64,000 nucleotides of DNA from an uncultured Candidatus Actinomarina sp. (GCA_902510055.1 CABWZY010000001.1:64212-128211), one strand, 5' to 3'; shown: positions 7,836 through 40,403, counted from the first letter of the stretch. The notes: generated by a model from the sequence alone, not told the origin. Numbers and translations: made by a program.

Positions 7836-8813
7836 GTGAATGATTCATTTATATTAAGAGACCGTAACTGGAGAGAAGCTAACGAAAGAGTTACTTTATC
7901 TTCTAATGCAACTTTTGCTAATAACTCAAAAGGAAGAGAAATAAATGAAGAACCTGATTTATTTAGAACTGTCTTCGAAAGAGATAGGGATAGAATTATT
8001 CATTCAAAAGCATTTCGTAGATTAAAACACAAAACTCAAGTTTTTATCAACCCTGATGGTGATCATTTTATTACAAGAATGTCACACACACTACAGGTAA
8101 CTCAAATTGGAAGATCTATAGCAAGAACTCTTGGGCTTAATCCTGACCTTACGGAAGCAATATGTTTAGGTCATGACGTAGGACACTCTCCTTTTGGTCA
8201 TACAGGAGAAGATGCACTAGCGGAGATACTCGAAGATGGATGGAGTCACTCTGAAAACTCTGTAAAAATATTTAAACAAATAGAGCCTTTAAATCTTTCT
8301 TATGAAACTTTAAATGGAATAAAATTCCACCCTTGGAAATATGAAGAATCACCGGAAACACCTGAGGGTATGGTCTGCAGGTTCTCTGACAGGATTGCCT
8401 ATTTAACACATGATGTAGAGGATGCAATTAGAGCAGATATTTTAAATAAAAATGATATACCTAAAAAAATAACTAAGATATTGGGTTCTCCGGGAAAACA
8501 GTGGATAAATAATTTAATTTCAGGAGTTTTTAAAGCTTCTACTAATACAGGAATAGATATGGATAGTGAAATTTTAGAATGCATGAATGAATTAAGAGAT
8601 TTCATGTTTGAAAAAGTTTATTTGAGAGAAGAAACAATTAAAGAAAGGGGTGAAGCTAAAGAAGTCGTTGAGAAACTTGTTTCAAGTTTTGAGAAAAATC
8701 CAGATTTACTACCTGAACAATACAGGACTGATCAAACAGACTTGGAAAATGCCGTTGACTATGTAGCAGGTATGACCGACAGGTTTGCTTTAAAAGAGTT
8801 TAGCAAATTATAA
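7836..8813 (+). CDS. dgt: dGTP triphosphohydrolase-like HD-domain protein
   Basis: Has the RDRDRIIHSKAFRRLKHKTQVF signature and an HD motif (GHDVGHSPFGH). Confidence 0.85.
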   Translation: MNDSFILRDRNWREANERVTLSSNATFANNSKGREINEEPDLFRTVFERDRDRIIHSKAFRRLKHKTQVFINPDGDHFITRMSHTLQVTQIGRSIARTLGLNPDLTEAICLGHDVGHSPFGHTGEDALAEILEDGWSHSENSVKIFKQIEPLNLSYETLNGIKFHPWKYEESPETPEGMVCRFSDRIAYLTHDVEDAIRADILNKNDIPKKITKILGSPGKQWINNLISGVFKASTNTGIDMDSEILECMNELRDFMFEKVYLREETIKERGEAKEVVEKLVSSFEKNPDLLPEQYRTDQTDLENAVDYVAGMTDRFALKEFSKL

Positions 8814-10323: not shown

Positions 10324-10332
10324 TAATAAAAG

Positions 10333-10406
10333 CGCGCCCGGAGGGAGTCGAACCCCCAACCTTCTGATCCGTAATCAGATGCTCTATCCAGTTAAGCTAC
10401 AGGCGC
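10333..10406 (-). tRNA. tRNA-Arg (anticodon ACG)
   Basis: I folded the reverse complement by hand. The acceptor pairs GCGCCTG with CGGGCGC, the anticodon loop is TTACGGA, and the T-loop is GGTTCGACTCC. No CCA is encoded. Confidence 0.9.
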
Positions 10407-10407
10407 T

Positions 10408-10499
<92 letters not shown>

Positions 10500-10506
10500 A
10501 AGTTTG

Positions 10507-10592
10507 CGGAGGGAGTGGGATTCGAACCCACGGTATGGAATACATACAATAGTTTTCAAGACTATCGCCTTCGTCCGCTCGGCCATCCCTCC
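10507..10592 (-). tRNA. tRNA-Ser (anticodon TGA)
   Basis: The reverse complement begins GGAGGGATGGCCGAGCGG. The anticodon stem-loop is ATAGT-CTTGAAA-ACTAT, with a long variable arm and a GGTTCGAATCC T-loop. No CCA is encoded. Confidence 0.9.
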
Positions 10593-10611
10593 TAAAAGGT
10601 ATTATTTTTTG

Positions 10612-10700
10612 CGGAGGGAGAGGGATTCGAACCCTCGAAGGGGATAAACCCTTACACGCTTTCCAAGCGTGCGCACTAGGCCAGACTATGCGATCCCTCC
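10612..10700 (-). tRNA. tRNA-Ser (anticodon GGA)
   Basis: The reverse complement begins GGAGGGATCGCATAGTCTGG. The anticodon stem-loop is CACGC-TTGGAAA-GCGTG, with a long variable arm and a GGTTCGAATCC T-loop. No CCA is encoded. Confidence 0.9.
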
Positions 10701-18057: not shown

Positions 18058-18077
18058 ATATTTAGAATACCCTATCG

Positions 18078-18150
18078 TGGAGATGATGGGACTTGAACCC
18101 ACGACCCCCTGCTTGCAAAGCAGGTGCTCTTCCAACTGAGCTACATCCCC
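18078..18150 (-). tRNA. tRNA-Ala (anticodon TGC)
   Basis: The reverse complement begins GGGGATGTAGCTCAGTTGG. The anticodon loop is TTGCAAG and the G3:U70 alanine identity pair is present. No CCA is encoded. Confidence 0.9.
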
Positions 18151-18239
18151 TCGCTTTTTATATTATGCCTTGTATTCCAGTGTAAATGAAAAAATTTTAG
18201 AAATATTTTATTTTCGTTACTAATGTATATATGACGTAA

Positions 18240-18314
18240 GGGCCTATAGCTCAGCCTGGTTAGAGCGCATCCCTGATAAGGATGAGGTCGTTAGTTCAAA
18301 TCTAACTAGGCCCA
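18240..18314 (+). tRNA. tRNA-Ile (anticodon GAT)
   Basis: Begins GGGCCTATAGCTCAGCCTGG. The anticodon stem-loop is CATCC-CTGATAA-GGATG and the T-loop is GTTCAAATC. No CCA is encoded. Confidence 0.9.
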
Positions 18315-18339
18315 CTGACTTTTTGTTATAATTGACATT

Positions 18340-31046: not shown

Positions 31047-31547
31047 TTAATGATCTCTAGATCTTGATGATTTGGTCATTGTTTTTTCTAATTTTCCATT
31101 CTTAAAGGTAAATGACTCAATACCGTCTACTAAATGTTTTCCTTGCTGGGATTTCTGTGAAATAACCTGTAAAATCATTCCTTCAAATGGTGAGATTAAT
31201 GTTATTGAGTGTTGTTTAAAATGCTTGGATGATTGATCTCTCCTAATAACATCACTAATCATGTGTTGAGATTCCCATGACCAGTCATCATCGGCAACTA
31301 CAAATTTGCATATATGTTTGGTTTGAGATTTATCTATCCTTGCTCCCGGGCAAACTATCAAAGACCCCTCTACCCATGGATTTAACCCTACTCCATCCAT
31401 TTTTGGGAAACCAACATTAAAAGCAGAGTCAATAATTTCATCAGTATCCCCTTTTTCTAGGTTCCTTTGTTTTATTACTTCTGATATAGAATTCTGTAAT
31501 TCAAACAATTCTTGATCTTTTAAGCTTTCGAGTTCTGTTTTATCCAT
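31047..31547 (-). CDS. Hypothetical protein (166 aa); last gene of the ABC/lipoprotein operon
   Basis: No signal peptide and no motif I recognise. It lies 39 nt downstream of the lipoprotein gene on the same strand. Confidence 0.4.
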   Translation of the reverse strand: MDKTELESLKDQELFELQNSISEVIKQRNLEKGDTDEIIDSAFNVGFPKMDGVGLNPWVEGSLIVCPGARIDKSQTKHICKFVVADDDWSWESQHMISDVIRRDQSSKHFKQHSITLISPFEGMILQVISQKSQQGKHLVDGIESFTFKNGKLEKTMTKSSRSRDH

Positions 31548-31586
31548 ACTTTAAATTAAAACAGGTAACTAAGACATTTTCTCACT

Positions 31587-32087
31587 TTAATCATCTAAGT
31601 TTTCAAGAGGATTTTCTGGTTGGCATACCTCAAATGCCTCCTGAACCTGGTCTGACGACCAATCAACATCCGCATCTCTAAATGCAAAGAAGCCAAATTC
31701 ACCTGGTGTTGGATCTGGAAAATCTATTCCCTGCTCTCTCATACATTGAGAAAATTCAAGAGAAGCATCTATTAAGGCTGCTTCTACTTCTGGATCTAAA
31801 TCAAACTGTTCGGGGAGTGCTTTTCTTAAAATGTCTTCACAGTTAGTAAAGGCCTCCTCGAAAGCTTCTTCGTTCTCGATATTAAGTTCATTAAATTCAG
31901 GATTACCATCAATATCAAATGTAGGGTCTGGAAAATCAACTCCCTCTTCTCTCATACACTGAGCAAATTCGAGTACTCCTTCTTCAAAAGTTATTTCTTC
32001 TTCTACTACTGTTGTTTCCGTTGTTGCTTCAATCGTTGCTACTCCTTTAGTTTCTTCACCACCTATTGTGCAAAAACTAATAAACAA
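31587..32087 (-). CDS. Acidic protein with two QCMRExG-x-DFPDP modules (paralog C); the N-terminus is probably longer
   Basis: Contains EFAQCMREEGVDFPDPT...C and EFSQCMREQGIDFPDPT...C. The only canonical start (TTG) leaves just 5 residues before the lipobox-like Cys. Confidence 0.6.
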   Translation of the reverse strand: MFISFCTIGGEETKGVATIEATTETTVVEEEITFEEGVLEFAQCMREEGVDFPDPTFDIDGNPEFNELNIENEEAFEEAFTNCEDILRKALPEQFDLDPEVEAALIDASLEFSQCMREQGIDFPDPTPGEFGFFAFRDADVDWSSDQVQEAFEVCQPENPLENLDD

Positions 32088-32104
32088 TAAAAATATAAGT
32101 CTTT

Positions 32105-33286
32105 TTATTTCCTCACCGCCTCTGCTGGTTGTATTTTTGATGCCTTTATAGCAGGGTAAACTCCTGATAAAGCCCCAATTAATAACGCCAATAAAATTGC
32201 TCCCAGAACTTGAAGTAGTGGTATTGAAAATACAATATTTGTGTACTTAGTGTAACCAAGAGTAATACCAGCACCCAATAATACCCCGACCAATCCTCCA
32301 ACTCCTGAGAGTAAGATACTTTCAAGTAAAAATTGATATCTTATTTCTTTTCTAGTTGCACCAATAGATCTTCTTACTCCAATTTCCATTCTTCTTTCAA
32401 GCACAGACATAATCATAACATTAGCAATTGCCACACCTCCGACCAGTAGAGCAACAGACCCGAGGCCTAGTAATAGATTTGTAAAAGCTACCTCTGCTGC
32501 TTCTTGTGCCTCAAGTGCGTCAGATGGTCTAGAGACACTAACTTGATCAGGGTTTTCTGGGTTCATTGAGGGTGCTAGAACTTCAACAACATCTTCTATA
32601 TACGTTGGGTTGGATCGTACATAAATTGTTGTAGGTTCCTCATCAATATTAAATAAGGTTTTGGCAACACCGTACCCAATAAATACTGACCGATCCAAAT
32701 CAGGATGTATCTTTAATTCATCTAGTATCCCAATAACACCGAACCATTCATTTTCAATTAAAATCCTTGTTGGCTGCGCAAGACTTGTTATACCAAGCCT
32801 AGATGCTGTAACGCTCCCCAGTACAGTTACTGGAATGTCCCCAAGTCCACTCTTTATAAAACGCCCTTCAGAAAGGTTACCTCCTACAACATCTAGCAAT
32901 TCTGGACTTGTAACAACAGTAGAAATACCTCCTCCTTCAAATTCAGATATAAAATCTGTTCTTCTGACTAATAAATCTGTTTGTGTTGTTGATGTAACTT
33001 CTTGAACTGGTCCTATTCTTTCGACCATTCCAAGAACCCCGTCAGGCAGTTTTTCTTGTGTGCCAAAAAAGCCAGCTTGAGGTGAGGCTTTGATCAAATT
33101 TGTTCCTAAAGATTCTAAAGTTGCTAATAAGTCAGCTCTTCCGGATGCAGAAATTCCTGTAACAGCAACTATGGCTGCTATTCCAATACCAATACCTATA
33201 GATGTTAGAGTAGCCCTTCCTCTTCTTGCTTTAACTCCATAAAGCGCAACCATGAACAAATCTACAATTTTAAGTTTTTGCTTCAT
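32105..33286 (-). CDS. MacB/FtsX-type ABC transporter permease
   Basis: 393 aa with TM1, a large extracytoplasmic domain and three C-terminal TM segments (FtsX-like). It is adjacent to the ATPase. Confidence 0.85.
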   Translation of the reverse strand: MKQKLKIVDLFMVALYGVKARRGRATLTSIGIGIGIAAIVAVTGISASGRADLLATLESLGTNLIKASPQAGFFGTQEKLPDGVLGMVERIGPVQEVTSTTQTDLLVRRTDFISEFEGGGISTVVTSPELLDVVGGNLSEGRFIKSGLGDIPVTVLGSVTASRLGITSLAQPTRILIENEWFGVIGILDELKIHPDLDRSVFIGYGVAKTLFNIDEEPTTIYVRSNPTYIEDVVEVLAPSMNPENPDQVSVSRPSDALEAQEAAEVAFTNLLLGLGSVALLVGGVAIANVMIMSVLERRMEIGVRRSIGATRKEIRYQFLLESILLSGVGGLVGVLLGAGITLGYTKYTNIVFSIPLLQVLGAILLALLIGALSGVYPAIKASKIQPAEAVRK

Positions 33287-33967
33287 TTATGCGACTATCT
33301 TTCCATCTACTAATTTCACAACTTTCTTAAACTTTTTAGCGTGATCTAGATTATGGGTAATCATAATTACTGTTTTTCCTTGTTTGTTCAGATCTTTAAG
33401 GATCTTTAATATGTTGTCTCCTGATTTCTTATCAAGATTTCCTGTTGGTTCGTCTGCAAGCACAAAAGCGGGGTTCTGTACCAAAGCTCTTGCTATAGCT
33501 ACTCTTTGTTGTTCTCCTCCGGATAATTCTTTTGGTAGGTGTCCTAACCTTTCTACCAATCCAACCTCTTCTAAAACTTTTGCTGCTCTTTTTAATCTTT
33601 CTTCTCTCTTGATCCCTTGATAAAGTAATCCCTCTGCAACATTCTCCTGTGCTGTTAACCCAGGCAAGAGAAAAAAACTTTGAAAGATAAATCCTATTTT
33701 CTCTCCTCTAAACTTTGATAACTCATCATCTGATAAAGTTGAAATATCTTGACCTTCTATCTCTATGTCTCCTTCGGTTGTAGAATCTAGCAAGCCGATC
33801 ATATTTAATAAAGTTGATTTTCCACTACCTGATTGCCCTACTATGGAAACCAAATCTCCTTCTTTAATATCAAGGGAAATCTTGTCTACTGCCTTTACTG
33901 GCGGAGGTCCTTTGTAAACTTTTGAAATGTTATTTAACGATATTACTGTTTTCGTTTTTGATTTCAT
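33287..33967 (-). CDS. ABC transporter ATP-binding protein (MacB/LolD-type)
   Basis: Has Walker A GQSGSGKST, the signature LSGGEQQRVAIARAL and Walker B VLADEPTGNLD. Confidence 0.9.
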   Translation of the reverse strand: MKSKTKTVISLNNISKVYKGPPPVKAVDKISLDIKEGDLVSIVGQSGSGKSTLLNMIGLLDSTTEGDIEIEGQDISTLSDDELSKFRGEKIGFIFQSFFLLPGLTAQENVAEGLLYQGIKREERLKRAAKVLEEVGLVERLGHLPKELSGGEQQRVAIARALVQNPAFVLADEPTGNLDKKSGDNILKILKDLNKQGKTVIMITHNLDHAKKFKKVVKLVDGKIVA

Positions 33968-35535
33968 CTTGGTACGATTACTAGTTGTCCTTCACTAATG
34001 TTTCCAATTATCTCAACATAGCCATCTGTAAATACTCCTATTTCTACTCCCACATATGTTGTGTCTACTCCAGGTTCTCCACTAAATACTTCGCTTTCTG
34101 GTTCTCCATTGTAAATTTCAACAGCATAACCTCCTTCAGCAAGAGCAATTAACGCATTGACTGGAACGTAAAGAACACCTTGTGATACTTCTGTTGTTAT
34201 AAATACTTTTACCGGTGCTTGGTCATATACATCTATTTCTTCAGGCTTTAGAACATCTAACTTAACTTGAATAAAATTTCCTGCTTGTGTTTCTGTTACT
34301 ACTTGATCTATAAATTTAATACTTGTGTCTGTTCTTTCATCTGTTGGGAGCTCTATTTCAACACTTTCACCTAATGTAACAGTATCCTGATCTGCAGCTG
34401 GAAGCCAAAATAAAACCTCTATTCCGACAGAAGAAGAATTATAAATCTGTCCATTAATTGTAACTGCACCGCCAACTTTGTTTATATAGGAACCAACAAT
34501 TAAAGGTGTCGTTGAGGCATAGGCATTTGTTGGACTAAATGTTTCAGATTTTGCTGTTAGTTCTAAGTCTTCAAGTTCTTCTTTTGCCTTAGCAAGTTCT
34601 GCTCCCTGGTCAACTCCCTCGTTGTAAGCTTCTAAAGCGTCATCATAAGCTTTTTGAGCTGTTTCTATTGCTAATGCCTCTGATGCATCAATTCCAGACT
34701 CTTTACCTTCTTCCATGTCTCTGATTCTTTTTTGCTCTTCTATTAAATCCTCATAATTTTTTATCTCATCATTTCTAGTATCTTCAGATTTTGCACTAGT
34801 TTTTGGATTTGTTAAATCTTTTAGTAGAGTGATCTGTTTCTCATATTCTTTTACTAAGTTATCTGATGTTTTCCATGCTGTGCTTTCTTCAGTTGCGTTT
34901 TCATTAGCATCATCTAATTTTTTCTTTTTATCATTTACTTGGGCAAGCGTTGTTCCTCCTGATGAAATAGTGTCTTCAATTGCCTCTATTGCGTTTTTTT
35001 TGGCATTAATTGCTACCTGCTCAGAAGGGGTTATCGCAGATTTAGTTTCAATTTTATAATCTATATAAAGCTTATTTAGCATGGATGAAGTAACTTCATC
35101 AAATTTTTCATCGGCTACAAAGTCTTCTTCTGCATACCCCAGTGAAATTAGGCCTTCTTCAACCTGTTTAATATCTGGTCCATCATCTGAGGTCAAATCA
35201 AGAGTTCTATAAAAAGGAGTGGAACCTTCTAGAAGGATGACTGGTTTATTATCTACAGCATAAAGCACTTGGCCATAATTAATAACTGTTCCTTCTTCTG
35301 GTAGGTAGGTTATAACTCCAGTAATTGAAGAATTCAATACTGCCTTGTCAACCTGACTTAGGGTACCGTTATATTCTTCTTTTTTTGCCAAATCTCCTTT
35401 AGAGATTTTAACAGTAGTTAACTCAAGAGTTTTCTCAGTAGACAAGGAGGATGTATTTTGAGAACCAAAATAAAATGAAGCCGCAGCTACGGTAATAATG
35501 ACTAACCATATAGTTATGTTTTTTCTTGAAATCAT
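33964..35535 (-). CDS. Membrane-fusion/periplasmic-adaptor-like protein with a peptidoglycan-binding-like insert and a long coiled coil
   Basis: Has an N-terminal TM segment, a barrel-sandwich-like segment, a PG_binding_1-like stretch (IKQVEEGLISLGY), a long acidic coiled coil and a beta-rich C-terminus. It overlaps the ATPase gene by 4 nt. Confidence 0.7.
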   Translation of the reverse strand: MISRKNITIWLVIITVAAASFYFGSQNTSSLSTEKTLELTTVKISKGDLAKKEEYNGTLSQVDKAVLNSSITGVITYLPEEGTVINYGQVLYAVDNKPVILLEGSTPFYRTLDLTSDDGPDIKQVEEGLISLGYAEEDFVADEKFDEVTSSMLNKLYIDYKIETKSAITPSEQVAINAKKNAIEAIEDTISSGGTTLAQVNDKKKKLDDANENATEESTAWKTSDNLVKEYEKQITLLKDLTNPKTSAKSEDTRNDEIKNYEDLIEEQKRIRDMEEGKESGIDASEALAIETAQKAYDDALEAYNEGVDQGAELAKAKEELEDLELTAKSETFSPTNAYASTTPLIVGSYINKVGGAVTINGQIYNSSSVGIEVLFWLPAADQDTVTLGESVEIELPTDERTDTSIKFIDQVVTETQAGNFIQVKLDVLKPEEIDVYDQAPVKVFITTEVSQGVLYVPVNALIALAEGGYAVEIYNGEPESEVFSGEPGVDTTYVGVEIGVFTDGYVEIIGNISEGQLVIVPR

Positions 35536-35568
35536 ATTTACTAATTTTACCCTTACTAGTAGATTACC

Positions 35569-36102
35569 TTATTTGTCTATTCTTGAGGCTGTTCTTTCTG
35601 GACTACACTCTTCTAGATACTCTTTAATTGTTTCTCTGTTTTCCCCTGCTTCACTTAAGTTAAGCTTTGGATTGTCTTGTGTGGGGTCTGATACGTCCAA
35701 ACCTTTGTCTCTTAAGCATTGGGCTAGTTCTAAACTTTCATCAAATTTTCTTGCTTGTTCTTCTGGGTTGACAGACTCTCTATCTGGCCATAATTCATTT
35801 TCTTGTATACAGTTCTCTACGTCCTCCATTATTTCCTTTGCTTCTTCTCTCCCTTTTTCTTTCCCTTCTTCACTTCTATTCATTTGTTGTAACATAGATT
35901 TTAAATCTTCAATATCAAAAGGTGTCTGGAGGTCGTATCCTTTAGTTTTTAAACATTCAGTAAGAACTAGTGGATAATCTTCCTCCGTAATAACTTCTGT
36001 TTCTTGAGCCTCAGTGTTTAGATCGCTTAAAGTCGCTACACCTTGGTCTTTATTGGCTGAACATGCAACAAGAAATACTAAAAGAAATAATATTTTTCTC
36101 AT
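35569..36102 (-). CDS. Acidic lipoprotein with two C-x(n)-C modules (paralog B)
   Basis: Has the lipobox LVAC, then LTECLKTKGYDL...C and LAQCLRDKGLDVSDPT...C. Confidence 0.65.
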   Translation of the reverse strand: MRKILFLLVFLVACSANKDQGVATLSDLNTEAQETEVITEEDYPLVLTECLKTKGYDLQTPFDIEDLKSMLQQMNRSEEGKEKGREEAKEIMEDVENCIQENELWPDRESVNPEEQARKFDESLELAQCLRDKGLDVSDPTQDNPKLNLSEAGENRETIKEYLEECSPERTASRIDK

Positions 36103-36114
36103 ATAGCGAATACT

Positions 36115-36699
36115 TTAATCGTTTTCTTCCCTGAGGTCTTCTGGAACTTCGTATCCATTTTCTGTTATGCATTCCCTTACCATGGCCCTTAGGTCTTTTG
36201 CTGATATTACACCTGTTACAACGTACTGTGGCAGAGTGTCTCTTAAGCCATTTTCACTTGTTGGATCTGGCACATCTAAACCTTTTTCTCTTATGCATTG
36301 TGCTATCTCTAACTCTGCATCTAGTAACTCTGCTTGCTGTTCTGGGGTTGCCTGATCTCTAGCGTCAAGTGGAATATCATATTCATCTGCACATTTTTCT
36401 ATTAACGAATAAAACTCTTCTCTTTCTTCTTGATTCATTTCTACAAAAATAGGAGTTAGTATTCTTCTTAAATCACCAGGGTTTTTTGGATCTTCAAGTT
36501 CATAATTATTATCTCTAATACATTGTGCAAGCAATAATTCTGAATCAGCCCATGAACGCTCTTCTGAGGTAACAATTGTTGTTGTAGTAGAATCTATACC
36601 CTCTAAGGAGAGTACTCCTTGTTCTTCATTCTTACTAAAAAAAGAACAGGAAGAAATTAAAAGAAGAACAATTAAGAACAGAGGGGTTCTTCTGTTCAT
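36115..36699 (-). CDS. Acidic lipoprotein with QC-x-R-x-x-G-x-D-x-PDP modules (paralog A)
   Basis: Has the lipobox LISSC, then LAQCIRDNNYELEDP...C, IAQCIREKGLDVPDPT...C and a partial third module ECITENGYEVPED. Confidence 0.65.
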   Translation of the reverse strand: MNRRTPLFLIVLLLISSCSFFSKNEEQGVLSLEGIDSTTTTIVTSEERSWADSELLLAQCIRDNNYELEDPKNPGDLRRILTPIFVEMNQEEREEFYSLIEKCADEYDIPLDARDQATPEQQAELLDAELEIAQCIREKGLDVPDPTSENGLRDTLPQYVVTGVISAKDLRAMVRECITENGYEVPEDLREEND

Positions 36700-36702
36700 T
36701 TT

Positions 36703-37137
36703 TTAAGCTACTCCTAGCTTTTTCTTAAGATCATCAGTGATTGTTGTCGGTTTACTTGTTTTCATATCCGTATAAACATGAACTACTTCAGAAGAACTAG
36801 CTAGCTCCCCAGTGTTTTTCATAAAAATACCCATTATCCACGTCATGCTTGTGTTCCCGACCTCTTTTATTTTTAAACCAATCTCTATTTCGTCATCAAA
36901 ATATAAGGGCTTGTTGTATTGAACAACAACTTGGACTGTATGGAAGTCTTTGTTTGTAGTTCTGATTTCTTTTTCATAGTCATAATCTAAATCTCTAAAA
37001 TACTCAACGACTGCTTGATCATAAAAAGCAAGATAGTTAGCATTATGCATTATTCCTTGTGGGTCAAGCTCGTAATATCTGATTCTCGTTTCCCAAAAAA
37101 CTTTAAAATCAGATTTTTTTAACTCTATCTTTGACAT
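36703..37137 (-). CDS. Acyl-CoA thioesterase (4HBT/YbgC hot-dog fold)
   Basis: 144 aa with the R.YYELDPQGIMHNANY N-terminal pattern of hot-dog thioesterases. Confidence 0.75.
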   Translation of the reverse strand: MSKIELKKSDFKVFWETRIRYYELDPQGIMHNANYLAFYDQAVVEYFRDLDYDYEKEIRTTNKDFHTVQVVVQYNKPLYFDDEIEIGLKIKEVGNTSMTWIMGIFMKNTGELASSSEVVHVYTDMKTSKPTTITDDLKKKLGVA

Positions 37138-40249: not shown

Positions 40250-40390
40250 GAAAAAGTTTGAAACTCCATTCCTTCTCTCGAGAATTGTTGTTGTAAAAGC
40301 AAAAAGTCGACCTGACTTATCTTTCGAATCACAGTTGCGGGACAGTGTTAGGTTTTCACTAACTTCGCTTCTTTGCTTTATTCTTTAAAA
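40250..40390 (-). promoter_or_regulatory. Cobalamin (B12) riboswitch
   Basis: The minus strand reads AGTGAAAACCTAACACTGTCCCGCAACTGTGA...AAGTCAGGTCGAC. This matches the GUGAAA..CC / CACUG.CCCGCAACUGU core and a B12-box-like AGUCAGG. Confidence 0.7.
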
Positions 40391-40403
40391 AAAGTGTAGC
40401 AAA

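Follow-up and report, generated by a model that had tools for sequence, protein, structure and literature searches.

The 64,000-nt stretch of DNA analysed here (the window) comes from an uncultured Candidatus Actinomarina sp. (GCA_902510055.1 CABWZY010000001.1:64212-128211), and between positions 31,047 and 36,699 it was found to carry seven open reading frames (ORFs), all on the minus strand. In gene order these encode lipoprotein A, lipoprotein B, an adaptor, an ATP-binding cassette (ABC) ATPase, a permease, lipoprotein C and a protein of 166 aa, and the intergenic gaps are 12, 33, -4, 0, 17 and 39 nt. A first-pass annotation of the sequence had described the region as a MacB-type ABC exporter operon with three paralogous acidic lipoproteins built from a duplicated two-cysteine module. 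As a whole this observation was confirmed, with corrections to the module count, the start of C and the peptidoglycan-binding stretch of the adaptor. The lipoprotein family that includes A, B and C, here designated Mod, is a large unnamed family of Actinomycetota, and Mod is the first gene of a fixed phylum-wide cassette that continues with a PG_binding_1 adaptor, an ATPase and a MacB_PCD/FtsX permease.

Alignment of the three lipoproteins identified them as full-length paralogs sharing 35-37% identity, with five cysteines in register. Each contains exactly five cysteines, namely the lipobox cysteine and two pairs, and all three are acidic, with net charges of -25 (A), -21 (B) and -40 (C). Lipoprotein A has a signal peptide with the lipobox LISSC18, a linker of ~40 aa and the module pairs Cys60/103 and Cys135/177. 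The lipobox of B is LVAC14 and its module pairs are Cys50/98 and Cys129/166, while C, in which both modules are canonical, has the pairs Cys44/83 and Cys115/155. When the 64 kb was translated in six frames, the strict motif C[MILV][RK]xxGxDx[PS]DP was found four times, always within A, B or C. Module 1 is degenerate in both A (CIRDNNYELEDP) and B (CLKTKGYDLQTP), such that each protein contains exactly two modules and not the 'two or more' initially allowed for. C is the nearest of the three to the phylum-wide consensus, matching the family hidden Markov model (HMM) at 5.9e-50 (compare the values for A and B in Table 1). An AlphaFold2 model of C had predicted local distance difference test (pLDDT) values of 88-95 across the modules, each of which was modelled as two helices joined by a short hairpin or loop, with the two cysteines on the flanking helices. 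The invariant cysteine pairs and the modular repeat point to one disulfide in each module.

A signal peptide ending in a lipobox is present in A and B, and in C only if translation begins at ATA 32108. From its listed TTG start C opens with MFISFC and so has too few residues for a signal peptide. An in-frame upstream stretch that starts at the ATA encodes the signal peptide in full (IKRLIFLLFISFC); this ATA overlaps the TAA stop codon of the permease gene. In the related loci L001-L004 the signal-peptide frame of C (7983-8003) starts at GTA, likewise in frame upstream of the listed TTG or GTG start. In all five sequences the first codon of the frame therefore shares [A/G]TAA with the stop of the permease gene, an arrangement that is the AT-rich counterpart of the usual ATGA overlap. 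The family member P0005 has an ATG at the position of the window ATA and reads MKRIIFLLLISFC. This suggests that C is initiated from a near-cognate codon or is coupled to the permease by termination and reinitiation. Gene callers shorten or wrongly extend C, giving products of 166-168 aa versus 209 aa.

A search with a profile of A, B and C against 1.84 billion representatives recovered 3,097 Mod clusters (50% identity) at E<=1e-3 and 808 at E<=1e-10. Nearly all members listed are ~200 aa long and have five cysteines at constant spacing, with medians of 43 (C1-C2), 31 (C2-C3) and 42 (C3-C4). The tether from the lipobox cysteine to the first module cysteine has a median of 42 residues, and the median net charge is -31. 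The lipobox pattern was matched by ~100 of 150 family representatives, and a few members (P0145, P0157 and P0196) have an N-terminal transmembrane anchor in its place. Variants with three modules also occur (P0001, P0270 and P0271). The internal duplication is real, as the profiles of module 1 and module 2, built from 105 members, matched each other in hhalign (99.8%, E 3.6e-30, 61 columns). Mod is built from a lipobox signal peptide, a tether of ~40 aa that is acidic and disordered, and two helix-hairpin-helix modules in tandem, each of ~60 aa.

In its sources Mod is annotated as 'hypothetical protein', and the module, which could not be assigned to a named family at first sight, remained without a significant match in all sequence and fold searches made. 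Pfam gave no match above threshold for the window proteins, for 10 distant members or for a 127-member alignment, and NCBIfam and PHROGs had no match to the module. The best E-values of profile searches of the PDB with the module family were only 0.048 and 0.26, and with the model of C Foldseek retrieved nothing of similar fold from the PDB (best E 2.3, TM 0.2) or BFVD (best E 0.5). Sub-threshold Pfam noise among the 127 members included CX9C (13/127) and E3_binding (2/127). These weak matches are centred on the (F)AxCMRxxG(I/V)D stretch, and CHCH/CX9C and E3_binding are, like the module, small helix-loop-helix structures. However, Mod has one cysteine pair ~40 residues apart and a different cellular context, and Foldseek recovers neither fold, so that both were rejected as the identity of the module. 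No account of the Mod family, or of actinobacterial cassettes with a peptidoglycan-binding membrane-fusion protein (MFP) and MacB, was found in the literature, a review of MacB (PMC5985334) included.

The association of Mod with the pump was assessed in both directions. The forward set consisted of 80 Mod-seeded loci from GTDB species genomes, representing Acidimicrobiia, Thermoleophilia (Solirubrobacter, Conexibacter and Patulibacter) and Actinomycetes (including Amycolatopsis, Nonomuraea, Actinomadura, Planomonospora, Microbispora, Dactylosporangium and Umezawaea), together with a few metagenome-assembled genomes (MAGs) labelled under other phyla. Directly downstream of Mod and on the same strand, the adaptor was found in 76 of the 80 loci, the ATPase in 74 and the permease in 72; the misses are contig ends, L077 excepted. 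The full order of lipoprotein, peptidoglycan-binding adaptor, ATPase and permease is present in 72/80 loci, in classes with guanine plus cytosine (GC) contents of 33-70%. The reverse set comprised 80 metagenome loci seeded with high-GC adaptors, and counts were made over the testable loci, i.e. those with enough sequence. Mod lies directly upstream of the adaptor in 62/62 of these loci and the permease downstream in 36/36, while a response regulator (RR) or histidine kinase (HK) is present in 29/30. A possible 4-nt stop/start overlap joins Mod and the adaptor gene in 54 of 76 loci. Mod thus belongs to the cassette as a dedicated member that is inherited with it and usually coupled to it in translation, and its association with the pump is reciprocal and close to obligate.

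An OmpR-type RR gene and a gene for a HAMP/HisKA/HATPase kinase adjoin the cassette in ~75 of the 80 forward loci, usually in divergent orientation. Their best NCBIfam likenesses are VanR-O and CztS/SilS/CopS-like proteins, all below the cut-offs, and the kinase has a short extracytoplasmic loop of ~60 aa. All-against-all clustering of the ORFs in the 80 loci disclosed no conserved element other than the two-component system and the four core genes; the remaining clusters reflect synteny within genera. Two apparent fusions of Mod to the adaptor, P0218 (= L022, 7809-9512) and L069 (6636-9317), were rejected as evidence of interaction. Nanopore-derived MAGs are the source of both. A frame shift is plain to see in L069; in P0218 the modules are followed by the methionine and transmembrane helix of the adaptor itself, an impossible topology. 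The two are probably artefacts of stop loss or indels.

The pump genes are predicted to encode a MacB-type (type VII) ABC transporter, in agreement with the first-pass annotation. The permease matches PF12704 MacB_PCD (7.9e-15, 56.1 bits, cut-off 27) over aa 26-227 and PF02687 FtsX (6.3e-20, 71.9 bits, cut-off 25.5). Its closest PDB sequences are MacB 5GKO, the best match (3e-26, aligned over aa 7-391), MacB 5LIL and pneumococcal Spr0695 5XU1. The ATPase gene lies directly upstream with zero gap, and its product matches Pfam ABC_tran (2.9e-36); the top NCBIfam matches are LolD (1.5e-69) and the MacB nucleotide-binding domain (NBD; 7.5e-69), with DarD and FtsE also present, all under the equivalog cut-offs. 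A BceAB-type permease, which has 10 transmembrane segments and an extracellular domain of large size between the seventh and the eighth, was rejected, as the window protein has 393 aa, a single FtsX domain and an N-terminal MacB_PCD.

The third pump protein has an N-terminal transmembrane helix (aa 4-23) and is a probable MFP with C-terminal beta domains, as judged from its gene position, its orthology (76/80 loci) and a weak match to TIGR01730 RND_mfp (8.6e-10, 38 bits) that is below the family cut-off of 94.9. It gave no Pfam HlyD match and no PDB sequence match. A peptidoglycan-binding-like insert had been proposed for this adaptor, and the stretch concerned (~aa 117-160) has no Pfam match of its own at E<=1 and does not reach the gathering score of PF01471. 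It was recognised by alignment to orthologous adaptors that do match PG_binding_1: aa 41-155 share 42% identity with the adaptor of Amycolatopsis orientalis, in which the matching stretch is PG_binding_1 (2.5e-9, L040), and P0218 also matches this domain (4.8e-8). The C-terminal half of the region has diverged from the orthologs in the window adaptor. The long coiled coil that had likewise been noted corresponds to a predicted helical insertion of ~160 aa (residues ~170-329), which is specific to the order. It accounts for a length of 523 aa in the window and 514-574 aa in Actinomarinales adaptors, versus a median of 358 aa elsewhere. In the AlphaFold2 model aa 170-329 are helical (pLDDT 62-89); the model was built on a shallow alignment (62-96% identity), its beta domains are poorly modelled and its mean pLDDT is 49, so that only the helical region 110-330 is usable.

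Table 1 Features of the Mod and pump genes and of the adjoining 166-aa ORF, in window coordinates.
Feature	Position	Strand	Remarks
Lipoprotein A	36115..36699	minus	194 aa; family HMM match 2e-31
A module 1, aa 46-108	36376..36564	minus	degenerate motif AQCIRDNNYELEDP ... EKC
A module 2, aa 121-182	36154..36339	minus	canonical motif AQCIREKGLDVPDP ... REC
Lipoprotein B	35569..36102	minus	177 aa; family HMM match 2.6e-27
B module 1, aa 36-103	35794..35997	minus	degenerate motif TECLKTKGYDLQTP ... ENC
B module 2, aa 115-171	35590..35760	minus	canonical motif AQCLRDKGLDVSDP ... EEC
Putative membrane-fusion (periplasmic adaptor) protein	33964..35535	minus	523 aa
Adaptor helical (coiled-coil-like) insertion, aa 170-329	34549..35028	minus	Actinomarinales-specific; without counterpart in high-GC orthologs
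ABC ATPase, MacB/LolD/FtsE type	33287..33967	minus	226 aa; 4-nt overlap with adaptor gene
MacB-type (type VII ABC) permease	32105..33286	minus	393 aa; MacB_PCD followed by FtsX domain with four transmembrane segments
Lipoprotein C	31587..32108	minus	166 aa from TTG at 32087, or 173 aa from ATA 32108-32106
C module 1, aa 30-88	31824..32000	minus	motif EFAQCMREEGVDFPDP ... TNC; predicted helix, beta-hairpin, helix
C module 2, aa 101-160	31608..31787	minus	motif EFSQCMREQGIDFPDP ... EVC
166-aa ORF ('orphan')	31047-31547	minus	

The window has a GC content of 30-37% and many close homologs from marine (TARA) samples, and the named adaptors with 63-86% identity to the window adaptor belong to Ca. 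Actinomarinales or Ca. Actinomarina. The order is reported to contain very few paralogs, to lack identifiable two-component systems and probably to be without an outer membrane (PMC7771536). Neither the whole 64-kb window, with its three Mod members, nor L001-L003 contained an RR or HK gene, yet Mod has multiplied in them to three or four copies; there are four each in L001-L004, L085 and L086. As Mod is kept in such numbers where RR and HK were not found, it is tied to the pump and not to the sensor. The three copies bracketing the pump are specific to Actinomarinales; elsewhere in Actinomycetota there is almost always one copy, upstream of the adaptor.

The copies upstream of the pump differ from their surroundings in how they have changed. 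When the window was compared with the L003 lineage, the neighbouring genes shared 82-86% identity, C 81% and the adaptor 68%, whereas A and B shared only 42-44% with their best counterparts, and the upstream copy number and order were different. The upstream lipoprotein set is accordingly the variable part of an otherwise conserved locus. In the comparison with the close relative L087 all values were 86-95%.

Mod is best explained as a membrane-tethered extracytoplasmic accessory subunit of a Gram-positive MacAB-like pump, a proposal to which an even chance is given. The permease and the ATPase would form a type VII (mechanotransmission) ABC machine, as in MacAB, YknXYZ and SpMacAB, whose substrate would lie outside the cytoplasmic membrane and be driven through a peptidoglycan-anchored adaptor assembly serving as the exit path. 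Mod would be present in stoichiometric amounts as an extracytoplasmic subunit, attached to the membrane surface by its tether, and could dock on the adaptor or on the MacB periplasmic domain, there capturing or presenting the substrate, or else gating or assembling the adaptor. Given the net charge of Mod, the substrate would plausibly be cationic, and the paralogs of Actinomarinales might be alternative specificity or assembly subunits of one pump. A subunit is preferred on account of the conservation across classes, the single coupled copy per operon, the members with a transmembrane anchor and the retention of Mod without a two-component system in Actinomarinales.

Several points weigh against this proposal. 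The absence of any fold relative in Pfam, the PDB or BFVD makes the transfer of a function from a known structure impossible, no ligand-binding motif is conserved in Mod, and the methionine and histidine of CMR(D/E)HG are missing from the window copies. C has no canonical start codon before its signal peptide in the window, and if translated from TTG it would remain cytoplasmic. The only apparent fusions of Mod to the adaptor, which would have been strong support, are the probable artefacts described above. Finally, gene linkage by itself would fit a cargo equally well.

A rather unlikely alternative is that Mod is itself the cargo, the pump extracting, releasing or exporting either the lipoprotein or disulfide-stapled peptides cut from it, to the wall or the medium. 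MacAB exports the enterotoxin STII, and YknXYZ and AS-48EFGH handle disulfide or cyclic peptides. The strict gene linkage would be equally expected for a dedicated cargo, and the change in module number from two to three and the several paralogs per pump in Actinomarinales would also suit one. MacB-family pumps moreover handle small disulfide-bonded peptides from the outer side of the membrane (PMC5985334). Unlike toxins or bacteriocins, though, the module has a consensus strongly conserved over three classes, and each operon has a single Mod copy in translational coupling with the adaptor. The cassette shows no conserved processing site or peptidase gene, and the members anchored by a transmembrane helix (P0145, P0157 and P0196) could not be released by extraction of an acyl chain. 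The first-pass annotation had proposed cargo, substrate-capture partners or cell-envelope partners, and the evidence leans towards a dedicated subunit rather than a Lol-like cargo.

It is less probable still that Mod is a co-sensor lipoprotein of the neighbouring HK, reporting the state of the envelope to a two-component system that controls the pump. Precedents exist in LpqB with MtrB and CseA with CseC, the short loop of the kinase makes an accessory sensor plausible, and RR and HK genes stand beside most cassettes in both the forward and the reverse loci. This role is difficult to reconcile with the window and L001-L003, where Mod has been kept and multiplied beside the pump in the absence of RR and HK genes, as described for the order (PMC7771536), and with the orientation of Mod, which is co-directional and coupled with the adaptor and usually divergent from the two-component genes.

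That the system is no efflux pump at all, being instead a Lol-like machine for lipoprotein sorting or an FtsEX-like regulator of wall hydrolases, is considered very improbable. As in LolCDE/LolA, a type VII ABC transporter is linked genetically to lipoproteins and LolD is the top match of the ATPase, and the long helical region and peptidoglycan-related domain of the Actinomarinales adaptor recall the coiled-coil partners of FtsX. Nevertheless, the LolD, LolC/E and FtsX scores are all well under the cut-offs; an identity as LolCDE was rejected at 42.5 bits for LolCE TIGR02212 (cut-off 362) and one as FtsEX at 31 bits for FtsX_actino NF038346 (cut-off 250), the permease having a full MacB_PCD. 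The C-terminus of the adaptor matches RND_mfp, though below threshold, and no hydrolase domain is present. Unlike LolCDE, the system includes a probable MFP adaptor and Mod variants with a transmembrane anchor, and its host is a monoderm, an outer membrane being unlikely in Actinomarinales (PMC7771536).

Chance proximity in a streamlined genome, with which the tight packing throughout the region, a thioesterase gene 3 nt from A and a promoter and terminator scan at the level of shuffled sequence would agree, is effectively refuted by linkage in 72-76/80 forward and 62/62 reverse loci of classes with such different GC contents; the first-pass annotation had also argued against chance neighbours, and would have been contradicted by a lack of conserved linkage in relatives.

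A bolder form of the accessory-subunit proposal, which is offered tentatively and as somewhat doubtful, is that a 'tripartite' pump of monoderms, universal in Actinomycetota, is defined by Mod as its third component. The lipid-tethered, disulfide-stapled and strongly acidic Mod would dock on the peptidoglycan-anchored adaptor and choose what the MacB engine removes from the wall zone. In Actinomarinales, the smallest free-living cells, the swapping and multiplication of paralogs upstream of an otherwise conserved pump would diversify the specificity of one exporter in a genome of ~1.1 Mb that has no two-component systems. If true, this would mirror, on the export side, an ABC importer that is served by several substrate-binding proteins.

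Among known systems YknWXYZ of Bacillus is the closest in logic. In Gram-positive bacteria MacB pumps handle peptides that contain disulfides, acting on them from the outer side of the membrane, and use adaptors with no outer membrane present; YknXYZ, AS-48EFGH and SpMacAB protect against peptides, and their adaptors are thought to clear the zone between membrane and wall (PMC5985334). YknWXYZ shares with the present system a monoderm host, separate MacB-type permease and ATPase, an MFP (a probable one here) that is anchored by a transmembrane helix and binds peptidoglycan, and a fourth, accessory envelope protein; the extra protein of the Bacillus pump, YknW, is co-transcribed and thought to act on the adaptor (PMC5985334). 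The substrate of YknWXYZ is a peptide with a disulfide, on which the pump acts from the outer side of the membrane (PMC5985334). YknW is a polytopic membrane protein with no sequence relationship to the acidic, two-module lipoprotein Mod. The adaptor family described here also differs in carrying PG_binding_1, and its high-GC orthologs are without a long hairpin.

MacAB-TolC and SpMacAB (Spr0693-0695, S. pneumoniae) have the same MacB_PCD and FtsX permease, the same type of NBD and an adaptor anchored by a transmembrane helix. Unlike in E. coli MacB, the NBD here is a separate polypeptide, as in Gram-positive systems. Further differences are that no outer-membrane factor is expected, that there is an additional obligatory lipoprotein gene and that the adaptor has no PDB sequence match. 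LanI with LanFEG and CusF with CusCBA are examples of a small extracytoplasmic protein that binds a noxious ligand at the membrane surface and cooperates with a co-operonic exporter, the operon being controlled by a sensor; LanI is lipid-tethered. They may be regarded as functional analogies to Mod only, since the beta-rich folds of LanI and CusF are unrelated to that of Mod, the transporter classes are different and Mod, as noted, lacks a conserved ligand-binding motif.

The class of transporter is known, and what is new is a phylum-wide third component without a database family or detectable fold relatives. The reason why adaptor-containing MacB-type pumps exist where there is no outer membrane is an acknowledged open question (PMC5985334), and those of actinobacteria appear to be uncharacterised in the literature. 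The present analysis defines a phylum-wide cassette of two-component system, Mod, peptidoglycan-binding adaptor and MacB ABC transporter, and offers a solid and testable lead on the role of such pumps in monoderms, with a mechanism that we infer. Among the carriers of Mod are antibiotic producers amenable to genetics (Amycolatopsis, Nonomuraea, Actinomadura, Planomonospora and Microbispora), so that its role is directly testable. The retention of the cassette and the multiplication of Mod in a free-living genome that is among the most reduced known argue for a system basic to the actinobacterial envelope and not for a resistance trait of some niche. The least that the result justifies is a new entry for the domain family and the correction of the 'hypothetical protein' annotations.

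Two of the Actinomarinales loci show further features. L086 (ENA ERZ27289252 k141_216248), which is Actinomarina-like with an adaptor 63% identical to that of the window, has a divergent HK and OmpR-type RR adjoining the cassette (652-2595), in contrast to the description of the order as totally without identifiable two-component systems (PMC7771536). Among the upstream lipoprotein genes of L085 (3274-3714) and L086 (3269-3709) lies a gene for a multi-transmembrane protein of 146 aa without a family match, and L086 also encodes a secreted, histidine-rich, helical protein of 159 aa. These proteins may be further lineage-specific accessories.

Upstream of lipoprotein A in the window a 4HBT thioesterase gene (36703-37137, minus strand) ends 3 nt before it, and PFK and DUF2090/DeoC genes are tightly packed further upstream on the same strand. 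The order thioesterase, PFK, DUF2090/DeoC also occurs in L001-L004 and L087; in L085 and L086 an Acyl_transf_3 gene or a two-component system comes in between. The transcription unit may thus extend upstream of A in the window. Close packing from A to the 166-aa ORF, noted at the outset together with the operon, is not evidence of one, because the thioesterase gene lies so near to A and the genome is streamlined throughout. Scanning of the region for promoters and terminators gave no more signals than shuffled sequence and did not delimit an operon.

The 166-aa ORF at the downstream end was at first counted in the operon and was rejected as a member of the system, since it has no homolog in the 80 other loci and shows 95% identity when the window is compared with L003 or L087, as against 42-86% for the system genes and 82-94% for its neighbours. 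Its product has no signal peptide and no Pfam, NCBIfam or PHROGs match. It is strongly constrained, presumably cytoplasmic, appears to be specific to Actinomarinales and is probably unrelated to the pump.

Elsewhere in the window an adenosylcobalamin (AdoCbl, B12) riboswitch, RF01482, was detected on the minus strand at 40262-40394 (59.1 bits, gathering score 50), and by synteny with L087 it is upstream of a gene for a Peripla_BP_2 (BtuF-like) binding protein. A divergent pair of tRNA-Ala(TGC) and tRNA-Ile(GAT) genes at 18077-18315 has no adjoining rRNA gene that could be detected; tRNA-Ile is reported as a recombination hot spot beside ABC transporters in Actinomarinales (PMC7771536). A tight run of a tRNA-Arg gene and three tRNA-Ser genes occupies positions 10332-10700.

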